A stretch of DNA of 64,000 bases from Lama guanicoe (Eukaryota). The stretch lies in assembly GCA_013239625.1 (NCBI GenBank), contig MU057069.1, positions 1,918,018 through 1,982,017 of the forward strand. Reading direction: 5' to 3'. The notes under the pieces were generated by a model. It searched no databases. It saw nothing but the letters and a program-made list of their open reading frames with translations, and had not been told where the DNA came from. The translations under genes and the position numbers were made by a program. Below are positions 4,331 to 58,817 of the stretch, piece by piece; the stretch's first letter is position 1, and each line of letters opens with the position of its first letter.

Positions 4331-4478
4331 CTGAGATGGTGGCCGCGGTCTCCTCGGCCAGGAGGCGGTCCTTCTCCTCCCTCAGTTTCTCCAGTTCCCG
4401 CTGGTGCTGCCTCTGAAGGTCTTCAATCTTCTTCTGGTGCGTTTCCTCCATGGCTGCAAACCCTCGCTCACACGTGGC
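4331..4478 (-). CDS. MPRIP: MPRIP exon 17 ([49 protein letters not shown])
   Basis: Acceptor TTGCAG|GCC, donor TCAG|GTAGGC; 148 nt, phase 0 to 1. Confidence 0.97.
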
Positions 4479-7184: not shown

Positions 7185-10100
7185 CTTGAGGCTCTCAAAG
7201 TCCCTCTGGTGCTCCTCCTGCAGCAAGGCTGCGCTGCCCGCCAGACCCCTGTGCTCCAGCTCCTCCCGCAGGACGTCCACCTGGGCCTCCAGCTCCTGGA
7301 TGCGTGCTCTCAGCCCCATCACGGAGTCGGCCTCCCCCTCGGTGGGCCGGCTGCAGGAGGGGGCCTGGTGGGGGCTGCTCGGGGGGCCGGGGGCCGGCGG
7401 GGCTGCAGGGGGCTGTCCCTGGTAGTGGTGGAGGGTCTCTTGCAGGCACTGCAGGGTCTGTGAGTAGTGCTCCTGAAGGGCCCTCAGCTCCTCCTGGTGG
7501 ATTGTCTGCAGCTCTTTGATCTTGAGCTGGAACCTGTCCTCCAGTGTCTGCATCTGCTCCACGTGGTGCCTCTCCAGGTCCTGCCTGTCTCTGACGGAGG
7601 CGTGCAGCTGGCTCAGGACACTGCTGTGCTCGGCCTCCTCCAGCACACACTGCATCTCCCCCTCGTGCCCCCTCTGCAGGGCAGACAGGTGCTTGCCCTC
7701 CACTTCCTCCAGGCACTTCTGCTGATGGCCCAGCTGGGTGACCTTGGACTTGAGCTCTGCGTTCTCCTTTTCTATGACGGCAATCGCGTCCAGGTACTCA
7801 CTCTTCTGCTTCCGGAGAAGCTCCTCATACTCCTCCCTCAGGGCCCCGACAGCCAGCTCTTGCTCCTGGCAGGAGGCCCCCCCACCTGGCCAGGACTCCC
7901 TGCAACCCCGGAGCTCCTTTTCATACTCCAGCCGGATCCTGCAGGCTGCATAGCACACCTGAGCCTGAACAATCGCATCTTGAACTAATAAGGATGAATA
8001 CTGACTGAGGCCTCCCAAGCAAGCGTCCTGAGAGAGGTTCCGGGATGCCTGGAGGAGCTGCTGACAGTCCCTCAGTGGCTCCGCGGAAGGGAGCGAGGTT
8101 AAGGCGGCAGAGATCTCCCCTAGGAGGCTGGCCTTGTCTTTAAGCTGCAGGGCGAGCTCCTCCTGAACAGCAACGAGGGCCCCCGGGCTCTGGCTGGACA
8201 AGGGGAAGAGCTCCTGGGAGCCCCCCGTGTCCTGACAGCTCAGTACTTGCGCTGGGCTCAAGCCCCAGGATGCCTGTACCCCGTCTCCAGCGCCTGCTAG
8301 AGGCTCGAGGGCTTCCGAGACCTGCTGCATCACTCTCTCGAAGTCGGGGGTTTGGTAGGCTCCCAAGATGTCCCCCAGCAGACGCTTGTGCTGCTGCAGG
8401 GCTGCCTGGGTCCCCTGCAAGGTCTCCTGGACACTCTGCAACCTGCGTTGGAGGGCCTCCCTCACCGAGTGCATGGCGAAGCTGAGCTCTGCCCTGACCC
8501 ACGTGGCATCGGCCAGGGTGGGGCCCAGGCCCGGCGGGGGGCTCTGCTGCCCGCCACCTGAGGTGCGGGCTGCCTCCCCACCCAGCATCTCCAGGTGTTC
8601 GCGCAGGGACTCCACCTGGCTCCAGAACTCTCCGTCCACCAGCACCTTCTTGGCCCAGGCGTCTGCCGGGGCCCTGGGCCACCCTGCGCCACTTTCAGAG
8701 TCCAGCAGCACCTTCCTCGACTGAGAAACCTCAGAGAGGACGTGCGCGACATCCGAGGTCGTGCGCTTCACGGACTCCGCTATTTGGCCGATGAGCGCGG
8801 CTTCCAGAGCCATCTGGTCAGAAAGCAGCTTGAGCTGCTCCTGCTCGCTCAGCTCCGGCAGGCGGGGCGGCTGCGGTGCAGCTGCGGGCCCCTCCTCCTC
8901 CCGCTGTGTGTGCCCAAGGGCCTGGATGGCGCTGACGAGCAAGCTCTCCACGCTGGCCAGGGGCCCCGCCCCCGCTGCCCCGGCCTCCACCTCCGGGACG
9001 GCTCCCGGCAGAGACCGCAGCCGTTCCCGGCAGCTTTCCAGACAAGCCAGTGCCTGGCTGTTTTTCACCTGGAAGCCACCAAGCTCCCCGACGTGGTCTT
9101 CTACCACTCTGGCCCTGGCCTGTCTCTCCTGCTCCAGCTGGGAGGCCAGCACCCCGACTTGAAGCAGGCTGGCGCGGAGCTGCTCGCGGAGCCCTGCCTC
9201 GGTGCCGGCCCACTGCTGGTGCAGCGCGAGCAGGGCCTCCTGGCTCTGGCCCTGCTGGCTCTCCAGCCTCACCGTCACATCCTTGAGCTTCTCCTCCGTG
9301 ACGTAGAGCTTGGTCTCCAAGGAGTGGATTATGGACAGGTAGGTGTCTGCGTCGCTGGTCGCAGGGAGCGAGCCAGGGGTGGCCTCTGACGACATGCTTT
9401 CCTCCGAGGGTGACCGGTCCTGACTGGTGTCGGAGGACGTGCTGCTGGTCCAGATCTTCTCGGACCCCTCGGGGTGGGTGTATTTTTGACACTGGATGGT
9501 GGAGAACCGGATTCTTTGCCTCTTAATGCCAGGTGCACCCTGGCTGGGCTTTGAGGTGCTTTGCAGGGTCCCCTCCCTATCAGGCGCTCCCAACTTTGGG
9601 GGCTCCATGCCCTCTCCTCTCCGGGGGCTGCTGTCCCCCTGTTCCTCCCCCAGGGCAGCCCCTGGGTCTTCCTCGAGCCTCAAGTGTGAGAAGCCCGGAG
9701 GGGTGCTGGCAGCCTGGGCCTGCGGGCCCAAGAGCGAGATGCCGGCCGCCTCTGCTTCCCCGACGGCGCTCCGCGGCTCGCCTGCCACCTCTGGAGATGC
9801 CTTTGCCGATTTCCTGAAAACCTCTTCCCTTCCCTGGAGCTTCATCTCCGTTCCCTCTGAGCTGCTCCCCAAGGCCTCCTGCAGGCTCTCCTTCTCCTGC
9901 AGCGCCTTCTCATGCACGGCCTTTATGTGCCTCAGCTCCTCCTCCTTCTCCTGCAGGCGAGCGTGCAGGCCCTGCAGCTGGCCGGCCGCCCGCCTGTAGG
10001 ACAGCTCCAGGCGCTGGTAGTCGGCCTCCCTCCCCCGCAGCCTCTCCCGAAGAGCAGCCACGTCCCCATCAGACAGGGTGACACGGTCCATCAGCTCTTG

Positions 10101-10925
10101 GAAGCGCTGCCGGACCAGGTCCCGCTCATCCCGGAGGCCCTGGACGTGTGCGGCCAGTTCCTGCAGGCTGGCCTCCTTCTCCTCCAGCTGCTCCTCCAGC
10201 CGCTGCACTGCCTCACTGCCCTCAGCCTTGGCACTCAGCTTCTCCTGGTGGAGGACCTCCAGCTGCTGCTCGTGGCCCTGGAGCCGGTCCTCGAGGGCGC
10301 TGGCCCTGTCCTCTGCCTCCTTCAGGCTTCGCAGTAGCCCCTGCTTCTCCTCGGCACAGCTCCCCAGCAGCAGCTCATAGTTCCGCTGCAGCTGCTCCTC
10401 CATCAGCCTCTGGGCCTGCTCGCTGGTGCTGAGCTGCTGGCTGAGGTCGGCGATGCGCTCCTGCAGCCTCTGCACCTCCTTCTGCCGGTCCCGCTGCAGC
10501 GCCCGCTGCCTCTCCAGGTCCCGCAGCTCCTGTGTCCTCTCCAGCAGCAGGGCCTCCGCACGCTGCAGCTTCTGCTCACTGGCCTGCAGCTGGGCGCCGA
10601 GCGCAGCCTCGCTGTGCTGCCGCTCCTCCAGCTGCTCACGCACCCTGTCTTTCTCCAGCTTCAGCTCGCCCTTGAGCTTGGCCAGCGCCTGCTCCTTGAC
10701 AGTGAGCTCGGCCGCAGTGTTGCTAAGCCTCGCCTGGAGGCTCTGGATCTCGGCCTCGTGGTGCCGGACCGCATCCTTGGCCTCCCCATAGCTGTGCTTC
10801 AGGGCCTGGATCTGCTGCGTGATCAGCTCCTGGCGCTGGCACTGGGCCTCCAGCTCGCTGTGGAGATCCTGGTTGACTCTGTGGAGCCTCTGCCAGGCGC
10901 TGGACGGGGAGGTGGCCACTTCAGT
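7185..10925 (-). CDS. MPRIP: MPRIP giant alternative exon 16 (3741 nt, 1247 aa; TEVATSPSSAWQ...QEEHQRDFESLK): coiled coil, disordered linker and helical region
   Basis: Uninterrupted ORF 7110..10919 with E/Q/L/R-rich coiled-coil composition. Acceptor TTTTTTTAAG|ACT with TACTAAC upstream; donor AAG|GTTTCG. Phase 0/0 between two phase-0 junctions, so it can be skipped in frame. Confidence 0.9.
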
Positions 10926-10949: not shown

Positions 10950-10956
10950 GTTAGTA
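10950..10956 (-). promoter_or_regulatory. Perfect TACTAAC branch point (also a QKI/SF1 ACUAAC motif) for the giant exon
   Basis: The + strand reads gttagta; the branch A is about 25 nt upstream of the AG at 10926-10927. Confidence 0.75.
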
Positions 10957-13034
10957 ACACTCCGGCCTCCCAGTTCTGAGTGTCACACCTCTGGCCGGGG
11001 TCAACCACAGAAAAGCTCCTTGGTGGGTCTGTCTTTTATCCTTTGCACAATTTTTGTTTTCATTAAAAAAATACAACAAATCATCTTAATTTTTTCGGCA
11101 AGTAGCTGCTTCCAGGTAAACAGAAAACATGGACATTAACATCTAAACAGCTCTAACCAAACAGCTTCTAGGAGAAATAAACCAAACAAAACCGAATAAT
11201 GGAGCACACTGAGAAACAAGACGAAGACTGAGGGGCAGGAGGCCGGCAGGAAGGGCGGACGGGGAGCGGCAGTGCATTACATCGCGGCGTTTGTTTTGCA
11301 AAACAAAAGGCACACAGCTCAAGACCACGAACCCCGCAAGCGCAGGACCGGCGTGGGATGCCGCTTCCTTCTCGGACAGGGAGAAGGAAGGGAGGCCACC
11401 GCTGGTGCCTGTCAGCCAGGTGACCCCCGAACACTTTCCTGGGGGGAGTGGGCCCGTCCTCTACAGTAACAGGAAGAACTAATCTCTACCTGCAAGAAGA
11501 CAAAATGAGGGGGAAAATGGAAACCATGGAGTAAAATATGAGAATTAACAAAACAAACCTTTGTGAAACTCAAAATAAGAGAGTGAAGCGTGCAGAAAAT
11601 AAAACAACACAACTGAAACAGAATTCCCCACACTAGAAGGCGTGCAGGACAGACAGAACCAGCTGACGCAGGAGAGAACAGGAACGTGAACGGAGTGGGA
11701 ACAGCTTGGCCTAAGGACTGGCCTGCACGCGGCTCCCTCCACGTGTGCTGGCGGGGAGCCACAGATGTGACACTCAGTTCCGTAAGTCAGAGACGCCTCG
11801 CGCTCCGTGCCCACACGGCCAGCTCCTCCTCCCCCCCGTCAGCCCAGCACCCGTCCCCAGCCGCCGGTCCTCCTGACCATTAACCCCAAAGGCCCTTGCT
11901 CATTCAGACTCTGGATTACAATCATTTTCAAAGCACAAAAAGAGACTGAAAGGAACCCATGTTGGACCCAGCAGAAAGGTGTTAAGGTGTCAGCCGACTG
12001 GCGGGCTTCGGGCAGGCTCATGCACCCGTCCAGCTTAGGCCCGGGGAGGTGCTCAGGTTAGCAATGTGCAAAATCCATGGCCAGGGTCTTCACCACCTGG
12101 TGTGAAATCAACACATGTAGGATGGCAGCCCAACCAGAGATTTAAAAGATGCTTCTCAAACCTGGAGGGTCTGCACAAATGACTCAGAGAGTCTTGGAGG
12201 GAGGTGCAGGGAAGGGGGGTGCCCCGTCACCAGTTCTCAGTGCCTGAGAGTCTGGCCTGGGCACAGCAACAGCTGCAGCTAAAGGGCTAGGGCGGAGGTC
12301 CGGGGGACATGGGGCTCCTGGGGCAGGGCCAAGGCTGGGGGAGAGAGAGAGTCCGGGGGAATGTGCAACGAACACGGCACTGGAGGCAGGAAGGCGGACT
12401 CTGCCCAGAGGGTCGACTCGGACCAAGGAGGCCAGGGCACTGCAGTCTGAAGCGTTGGCCCAGCAACTCAGCCCAGAGACTCCAGGTCCCTGAAAGCCAG
12501 GAAGGCCCTCGGGGACGGGCTCTCGGTCTACATGGGCAAGGAGACTAGTGCTCAGGGGAGGGGTACCGGCTCCTGCAGGTCAGCGTGGGGCCCTGACTCG
12601 AGTGTTGCGTCTGCAGCCTGGGCTGAGGCCCAAGCCCTCGGTTCCGTCGCCCAGCTTGCTCCCCCACAGCCACCTCTCCCAGCAGCATATCCGCCGAAGG
12701 GGCGGGAGTGTGGCGTGTGCACCCCAGGACTAGACGGGGCCTGGACCGCTGCCCCGTCCAGGCAGGCTGCCCCCGGGAGTCTGCCTGGCGGCCAGCACCC
12801 TGGCAGAGACCTCCAGTGAGGATGCAGGGCTCAGGCTCTTGGTTCAGTCCAGGCTGCAGCCCTCATCCCCACTCCAGGCCACAGGGCAAATCGGCTCCAG
12901 GCTGGGTGGCCACGTTTCCCCTCACACTTTAGCCTGGGCAGAGAATCAGAGGTGGGCCACTAGCCTAGCCGTAGCAGCCCCAGATGGCCCTGCAGGTGGG
13001 GTACAGATGTGGGCAGGGACAGGGAACCAGCTCT

Positions 13035-13432: not shown

Positions 13433-13549
13433 CTGCAGCACGTAGCCCTCCCGGGCGCTCTGCTCCCGGCCCAGAGCCACCCTCAGCTGGTCCTGCAGCA
13501 GCCGGTTCTGCTCCAGGAGGTCCGAGGCCTCCTTCTGGCTCTGCTCCAA
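13433..13549 (-). CDS. MPRIP: MPRIP exon 15 (LEQSQKEASDLLEQNRLLQDQLRVALGREQSAREGYVLQ)
   Basis: Acceptor CAACAG|TTG, donor CAG|GTAGGG; 117 nt, phase 0/0. Confidence 0.97.
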
Positions 13550-30000: not shown

Positions 30001-30432
30001 CATTTCAAGAGGTTCACAACAGGCCGGCAGCCTACACACACACCTGGTCGAGAGCCCTGCCACAGGGCATGAGCTCTGATTACAGACTCAGGGGTGGAAG
30101 CTCCTACTGGAAGGGGCGCTTGGGCACTCTGGTCCAGGCCAGAGTGGAGGCCACAGAGACAACCCAGATCCTTCCCCAGCTCCCGGGAAAGTGCAGGGCC
30201 AGGGGAACAAGAAGAGGGAAGGGCCTCCTACCCTCAGACCACCATCAAGTCCCAGACCCTCGGTCCCTGACTCTCCCAGGCACACGTATGTACGTGAGAA
30301 GGGAGGAGAGGAAATGTGTGTGTGTAAAGAACGTGATGGTGTCCATGTGGGTACATGAGTAAGAAAACGTGAGGGTGAGGAGTGTGTGTGCACACGCGCC
30401 TGCGAGCCTTCGGCCTTGAGTACCCCCCTTAC

Positions 30433-30786
30433 CTCCGCTCGTGGCCAAACAGACGGGCCACCTCTTCCCTGCCAGGGCTCCGGGCCCGAGCCCCGCGCTC
30501 CAGCCGCCTCCTCTCCACCTGGAAGGCTTCTCGGTGGCTGATCCTGACGGCCTTGGGGACGTCGGCCAGGGTGGCATACTGCCTGCTGGCTTTAAAGGCA
30601 GAGGCGGGCCCCAGTCTCTCCGCTCCCCGCCCCCCAGCGCTGCCGGAGTCCACGCGGGCTGGAGGCTGGCTGACCGCATCCAGGGAGCTGAAGGAGCTGC
30701 TGCAGACCCTCCGGCCGGGGGGCCGAGGACCTGGGGAAGTAAGGGGATGATCAAGCTCCTGGGAGGGGGGGCCAGGGCCACTGTAC
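30433..30786 (-). CDS. MPRIP: In-frame 354-nt (118 aa) extension of MPRIP exon 7 through an alternative 5' splice site
   Basis: ORF 30429..30920 stays open past the proximal donor (AG|GTACAG) to a stronger distal donor AG|GTAAGG in the same phase 2. The in-frame stop is the TAA inside that donor. Confidence 0.85.
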
Positions 30787-30946
30787 CTGCTGTTGGGGGT
30801 GCTGGGGCTGGGAGGGGAGAGCGGCGGGGGCAGCTGCTGCTCCTCGGCCTTCACGTCCTGCTTGGTCTTCTCCAGGGAGAAGTAGCCACTCTCCACCCGG
30901 ACTTTGCGGCCACAGTCCATGCGGTCACCGCTTGGGGCGCTCTCCT
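30787..30946 (-). CDS. MPRIP: MPRIP exon 7, short form (ESAPSGDRMDCGRKVRVESGYFSLEKTKQDVKAEEQQLPPPLSPPSPSTPNS)
   Basis: Acceptor TTCCAG|AG, donor AG|GTACAG; 160 nt, phase 1 to 2. Confidence 0.95.
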
Positions 30947-58789: not shown

Positions 58790-58817
58790 NNNNNNNNNNN
58801 NNNNNNNNNNNNNNNNN
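58790..58817. other. Assembly gap (28 N) within a G/purine-rich tract
   Basis: Run of n flanked by G homopolymers. Confidence 0.99.

Follow-up and report, generated by a model that had tools for sequence, protein, structure and literature searches.

A giant cassette exon of camelid MPRIP: an ancient segment of mostly predicted helix with a candidate PP1-docking motif

The MPRIP gene on the reverse strand of the window analysed here (64 kb of Lama guanicoe DNA) contains a coding exon of unusual size, and this raises the questions of whether the exon is real, whether it has been described before, and what its inclusion would do to the protein. The MPRIP papers, as far as their available text goes, work with the ~1,000-aa form of the protein, and more than half of the long form is a vertebrate-conserved segment to which we found no function assigned. 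The explanation that we favour overall, with some confidence but well short of certainty, is that the exon is the ortholog of a known one, and that its inclusion lengthens a predicted rod and likely adds a candidate docking site for PP1. New here are a retrocopy that records skipping, the evolutionary depth to which the segment is conserved, the lack of the exon in camelid TRIOBP, and the PP1-docking candidate.

Read from 10925 to 7185 on the gene strand, the exon has no stop in its 1,247 codons, compared with 14-34 stops per frame in the other five frames and a mean of 31 (minimum 18) in 200 nucleotide shuffles; its GC3 is 0.83. The acceptor (...tttttttaag/ACT) and donor (AAG/gtttcg) are canonical AG/GT, and the flanking donor at 13433 (YVLQ/gt) and the flanking acceptor at 4478 (cag/ATCERG) are each in phase 0. 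An earlier reading of the letters by a model (hereafter the sequence-only reading) had proposed a single open, phase-symmetric exon of 1,247 aa, and frame, splice sites and phases bear this out. That the exon is instead an annotation or assembly artefact, a chance open frame in an intron, is next to inconceivable: it is refuted by the cross-vertebrate conservation described below, and it is also at odds with the intact frame as against the shuffles, with the annotated long isoforms, and with an exon named from human RNA data in the available text of PMC10901741. That it is a functional cassette exon is a near certainty. A run of 28 N at 58790-58817 lies in an intron and leaves the giant-exon finding unaffected.

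The heptamer TACTAAC upstream of the acceptor (Table 1) occurs only once on the gene strand of the window. We take it to be a perfect branch-point consensus and, by consensus, a candidate QKI/SF1 site; at this distance from the acceptor it could either aid recognition of the exon or act as a repressor site. Within the upstream intron there is also a single copy of TGCATG (12019-12024, reverse strand), presumably a candidate RBFOX site by consensus.

Table 1 Features of the MPRIP giant exon and related elements (window positions unless a contig is given; aa numbers are those of the exon product).
Feature	Position	Strand	Description
MPRIP giant cassette exon	7185..10925	(-)	3,741 nt, 1,247 codons, phase 0/0
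Upstream flanking exon	13433..13549	(-)	117 nt, ends ...GYVLQ, phase 0; joined to 4478 in retrocopy
Downstream flanking exon	4331..4478	(-)	148 nt, starts ATCERG
TACTAAC	10950..10956	(-)	26-31 nt 5' of giant exon acceptor
Exon aa 7-372	9810..10907	(-)	Long predicted helix/coiled coil (single-sequence AlphaFold2)
Exon aa 373-525	9351..9809	(-)	Predicted disordered Pro/Ser/Glu linker
KRQRIRFS, exon aa 468-475	9501..9524	(-)	Candidate RVxF-type PP1 docking motif
Exon aa 526-1010	7896..9350	(-)	Predicted helix 526-638, then shorter helices with flexible gaps
Exon aa 1019-1247	7185..7871	(-)	Predicted helix to aa 1170, Pro-rich break, conserved last ~50 aa
Processed MPRIP pseudogene	G000:C2399 about 432,800-435,400 (L004, L007)		Stops and frameshifts

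In camelids, the giant exon represents the ortholog of a giant cassette exon already known from MPRIP. Its product is 98.8% identical to the alpaca protein XP_072794677 and 96.8-97.1% identical to three Camelus proteins. A homolog search returned 681 matches among 7,964 scored candidates; since it was limited to long proteins (2,184-5,000 aa), broken orthologs could not appear. The best 120 of the 681 matches were mammalian and nearly all named MPRIP, with Camelus leading at 97%. Among these 120, an insert of 1,214-1,294 aa lies between the same flanking motifs in 119, and the remaining homolog aligns over exon aa 1-1245. Long MPRIP isoforms with the segment at this same junction are on record, as annotation only, for alpaca (the protein above), camel (XP_074198018), human (XP_011522066) and mouse (isoform 3). 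Long forms of fish and amphioxus bear unrelated automatic names such as golgin-like, trichohyalin and CENP-E.

The available text of Ilik et al. 2024 (PMC10901741) includes a human "MPRIP giant exon" of 3,807 nt in its set of giant cassette exons suppressed by SAFB, and reports that SAFB binds this exon in human cells and that SAFB loss leads to more inclusion. As 3,807 nt correspond to 1,269 codons, the insert length of human model P0138, the giant exon was already known. The sequence-only reading had described long isoforms as barely characterised; this is not supported, the exon being named in print together with a splicing regulator. The same available text is silent on tissue, on the function of the protein, on evolutionary depth and on motifs of the MPRIP exon, and our literature search brought up no study of what the protein segment does. 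PMC10901741 was the only relevant paper returned for the giant exon, and queries on the long isoform returned none. PMC10156590, in its available part, treats MPRIP exon 23, and the giant exon is not addressed there or in the available parts of PMC6613909 and PMC7407560.

Skipping has left a trace in the genome. A search of G000 with the downstream exon recovered the gene itself, its paralog TRIOBP, and a copy of MPRIP that lacks introns and is frameshifted (Table 1). In this retrocopy, 18 exon blocks matched the parent at 89% identity (gaps excluded), the exon ending at 13433 runs straight into the one starting at 4478 (GTGCTGCAG/GCCACG), and the giant exon has no significant match. Judged by this junction, the retrocopy is a record of a skipped mRNA in an ancestor's germ line. 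The small near-terminal exon is present in it. Through an alternative donor, the exon that starts near 30946 can be extended in frame by 118 codons (about 30430-30785, reverse strand); this extension occurs in some isoform models and is absent from both the retrocopy and human model P0137.

P0137 divides into 720 + 1,269 + 317 aa, so that its flanks sum to 1,037 aa, and the studied MPRIP form is given as ~120 kDa in the available text of PMC8068864. The flank sum and the retrocopy junction both agree with the earlier statement that M-RIP as studied has about 1000 aa and lacks the exon. The splice switch that had been proposed holds with respect to size, with ~1,037 aa upon skipping and ~2,300-2,450 aa upon inclusion; the parallel with TRIOBP that accompanied it does not, as discussed below. 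The case for inclusion in camelids consists of annotation and of RNA runs in whose unaligned reads 0.52 of the sampled words occur (eight rows recorded as RNA from two studies, which could be pre-mRNA or DNA).

The predicted anatomy of the segment (Table 1) matches the coiled coil, disordered Pro/Ser/Glu linker and helices described in the sequence-only reading. Single-sequence AlphaFold2 covered exon aa 1-542, and an alignment-based model covered aa 476-1200. The first helix is the portion that is still alignable to amphioxus and a hemichordate. The alignment-based model has helices over aa 526-1170 without a confident compact domain (pTM 0.25), and a Foldseek search with this model, to be read with that pTM in mind, gave 0 matches at E<=0.001; Pfam returned coiled-coil matches only, all sub-threshold. 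The last ~50 aa of the exon run into the constitutive C-terminal coiled coil, with the last 47 aa outside the folded model, and the last exon helix has a weak likeness to that coiled coil (87%, hhalign), which may be compositional. A spacer or rod role of the exon is a prediction that we consider quite probable. Two other candidates were rejected, namely generic coiled-coil clusters (JAKMIP, Rabaptin) at 0.90-0.91 in the ESM Atlas for exon aa 500-1100, and an internal repeat between aa 675-850 and 895-1060 (hhalign probability 6%).

On the evidence of protein sequences, the segment is ancient, extending from mammals to lamprey and amphioxus; its single-exon structure and skippability are shown for mammals only. 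Searching 1.84 billion representatives yielded 62 matches; among the 20 that were looked up are gecko, frog, coelacanth, sturgeon, teleosts, whale shark, skate, chimaera, lampreys and amphioxus, with no protostome sequence identified among them. In a 25-row alignment the same flanks enclose the segment in all 24 homologs. It measures 1,179-1,404 aa in 22 of them, among which are shark, chimaera, lamprey and amphioxus; the other two, divergent paralogs from fish, have 1,000-1,070 aa. Identity to the alpaca segment is 70% in human, 53-55% in sauropsids, 24-28% in cartilaginous fish and 20-21% in lamprey and amphioxus. A hemichordate protein gave pairwise BLAST matches to exon aa 18-263 and 533-631. 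The deepest matches may be inflated by coiled-coil composition, but they are also consistent in where they lie, between PH2 and the C-terminal coil. Given this age, short M-RIP is likely a reduced form of a longer ancestor.

It could be argued that weak selection has left behind an exon that is seldom included, comes to light mainly at low SAFB, and gives the long protein no distinct job in mammals. Conservation of the segment is lower than that of its flanks (70% in human vs. 95-98% for the PH domains), truncated or partial models exist in pig, buffalo and voles, and only the ~120-kDa form is used in the available text of three MPRIP papers (PMC10156590, PMC8068864 and bioRxiv 10.1101/2023.03.08.531807). 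Nonetheless, frame, length and both boundaries are maintained across vertebrates, identity to reptiles and birds still reaches the values given above, exon aa 466-600 are 90% identical to human, and the mouse isoform 3 on record has 2,423 aa. We consider a leftover highly improbable.

With regard to the incomplete models, three pig RefSeq models (P0150, P0152, P0153) have a frameshift inside the exon, shortly after the RIRF motif introduced below, that truncates the protein; the exon is intact in five other pig models and in warthog, and the frameshift may be a reference error or an allele. Buffalo models (P0292, P0293, P0298, P0336) keep the first 915 aa of the exon and vole models (P0306, P0313) the first 312, joined directly to the next exon. 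These partial exons may represent internal donors, assembly errors, alleles or annotation work-arounds; the vole internal donor sequence is absent from the camelid 64-kb window. A quick tree of MPRIP-like proteins (9 of 23 inner branches open, without a TRIOBP row) suggests two MPRIP-like groups in cartilaginous fish (P0197, P0282 and P0284 vs. P0192 and P0198), one with the RIRF island and one without. In teleosts there is a copy that evolves fast and lacks PH1 (P0205, P0211, P0221, P0228).

Within the linker, KRQRIRFS is followed by a conserved I-x-C-x-K/R-Y and by a Trp at aa 492. The RVxF core pattern is [RK]-x(0,1)-[VI]-{P}-[FW], and RIRF (aa 471-474) is its sole match in the long protein, counting the exon and both constitutive halves. 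The region is predicted to be disordered (pLDDT about 40, no helix, single-sequence AlphaFold2). Because 24% of exon shuffles contain a plain RVxF match (1.7% with an extra basic residue), it is conservation alone that supports the motif. The pattern [RK]x[RK][IV][RK]F matched in 236 of 253 long proteins, a redundant and mammal-heavy set defined by at least 1,900 aa and a C-terminal anchor. The 17 strict misses came from eel (2), skate (3), lamprey (3), seahorse (3), catshark, stingray, paddlefish and Paramormyrops (3). Despite missing the strict pattern, I-x-F is still present in paddlefish and in the single row of Paramormyrops that was inspected; the motif is wholly absent from lamprey, amphioxus, the skate/ray/catshark copy, and the eel and seahorse rows. 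Its absence from lamprey and amphioxus means that it cannot explain a segment older than jawed vertebrates. Across 16 non-mammal jawed vertebrates, identity was 12-15% over aa 376-450 and 51-54% in the next two 25-aa windows. KRQRIRFS was the top-ranked 8-residue window (0.96) over 17 rows, which were picked after the alignment had been seen, the 7 of 24 omitted being those without the motif. A PDB sequence search with the motif region gave 0 matches, and no prior report of PP1 docking by MPRIP was found among the titles listed, subscription papers not being covered. Whether the giant exon adds direct PP1 docking through this candidate site is, in our estimate, evenly balanced. Elsewhere in the genome, a match resembling the N terminus of PP1 (G000:C3586:8541952-8542086, L011) carries an internal TGA and is probably either the pseudogene of a phosphatase or a related member of the family.

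The same data could be read as a structural spacer or oligomerisation rod only, with the basic-aromatic island binding a non-PP1 partner (an importin, a kinase, or an intramolecular site). KRQR also fits a basic nuclear-localisation pattern, the exon is mostly predicted plain helix with no fold match, and RIRF is missing from the oldest lineages. Short MPRIP has been detected in nuclei, according to the available text of PMC8068864. On the other hand, invariance is not confined to basic residues but covers I, R, F, S, I and C, and in two fish a basic position changed and I-x-F was kept. A role limited to that of a spacer is a serious alternative, although a doubtful one, and we continue with the rod that also carries a candidate PP1 site.

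Short M-RIP binds actin at PH1, RhoA within residues 545-823 and MYPT1 at 824-879, as given in the available text of bioRxiv 10.1101/2023.03.08.531807. In the 1,037-aa form, the exon product would enter behind residue 720, within the RhoA interval and before the MYPT1 interval; the former would therefore be split and the latter intact but displaced. Inclusion is predicted to place a longer helical rod between the actin-binding and MYPT1-binding ends. The MYPT1 interval would stay whole but come to lie ~1,250 residues farther away from the PH domain that binds actin, and RhoA binding may be disturbed. With the candidate RIRF on a flexible loop between two rods, long MPRIP might hold the PP1 catalytic subunit itself, and the short form would reach PP1 only through MYPT1. 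If RIRF does bind PP1, one splice choice would alter enzyme recruitment by a myosin-phosphatase scaffold. A broader proposal, which we put forward tentatively, is that long MPRIP is a hitherto unrecognised PP1 regulatory subunit: inclusion would turn a MYPT1 adaptor into a rod-like scaffold, anchored on actin and carrying its own PP1, whose RVxF motif was gained in jawed vertebrates on a chordate-ancestral rod, with short M-RIP and TRIOBP-1 being reduced forms of the ancestral long protein.

Several known systems can be set beside the long form. The class described in PMC10901741, whose available text also names giant coding cassette exons in ANK3, ANK2, MAP2, MAP4, CLIP1, NIN and NASP, shares with it a large coding cassette in a cytoskeletal gene. 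Like members of this class, the camelid exon codes in frame for more than 1 kb (Table 1), and it is skippable between constitutive flanks, as the retrocopy junction indicates. Human and camelid exons (1,269 vs. 1,247 codons) have the same flanks and are 68% identical. The difference lies in composition: that text states more than 33% adenosine for all SAFB-suppressed giant exons except MAPT, a bias that is typical of the class without strictly defining it, whereas the camelid exon is G-rich (21% A, 36% G, 57% purine). The table in PMC10901741 gives GAG/CAG k-mers for human MPRIP. We file the camelid exon as the ortholog of a listed exon, and not as a proven A-rich SAFB target.

TRIOBP-5/6 resemble long MPRIP in being products of a paralogous gene, in similar total size, and in having a PH domain, a C-terminal coiled coil and the phase-0 junction. 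Their extra length is an N-terminal, disordered part (available text of PMC7663296), whereas the MPRIP insert is internal, mostly predicted helix, and no disordered N-terminal repeat region. Camelid TRIOBP has a 5,278-nt intron at the same phase-0 junction, with no trace of giant-exon similarity in it. The parallel drawn in the sequence-only reading is thus reduced to size. Fish or shark TRIOBP may keep the exon, although the 7 non-mammal proteins compared (real fish TRIOBP not among them) were all nearer to MPRIP than to TRIOBP exons or, for amphioxus, unresolved. If amphioxus is taken as the outgroup, the simpler history would be that TRIOBP lost the segment and that skipping became optional in MPRIP. 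Drosophila Outspread, given as the MPRIP ortholog in the available text of PMC10409296, belongs to the same family, and "protein outspread" is the name given to some of the long forms from fish and amphioxus.

With respect to docking, RVxF is the commonest PP1 docking motif and is found in disordered regions (available text of PMC8786283 and PMC11536154). Phactr1 docks PP1 via LIRF(519-522), EVAD(527-530) and W542, as stated in the available part of PMC7599070. In the MPRIP linker, CQKY (aa 479-482, at +5 to +8 from F474) is a possible counterpart of EVAD(527-530), the site of the hydrophobic pair in Phactr1, and the Trp stands at F+18 (W492) as compared with F+20 in Phactr1. Exon aa 483-492 contain no Arg, with a Lys at 490, where Phactr1 has an Arg motif between the hydrophobic pair and the Trp, and we do not assign the candidate motif to the Arg-containing Phactr1-type subclass. 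It is in its aromatic residue at F+8 and its downstream Trp that the linker is like the RVxF actin regulators, and it has in common with Phactr1 and spinophilin/neurabin (PMC7599070 and PMC8786283, as far as available) a basic-I-x-F core in predicted disorder on an actin-binding scaffold.
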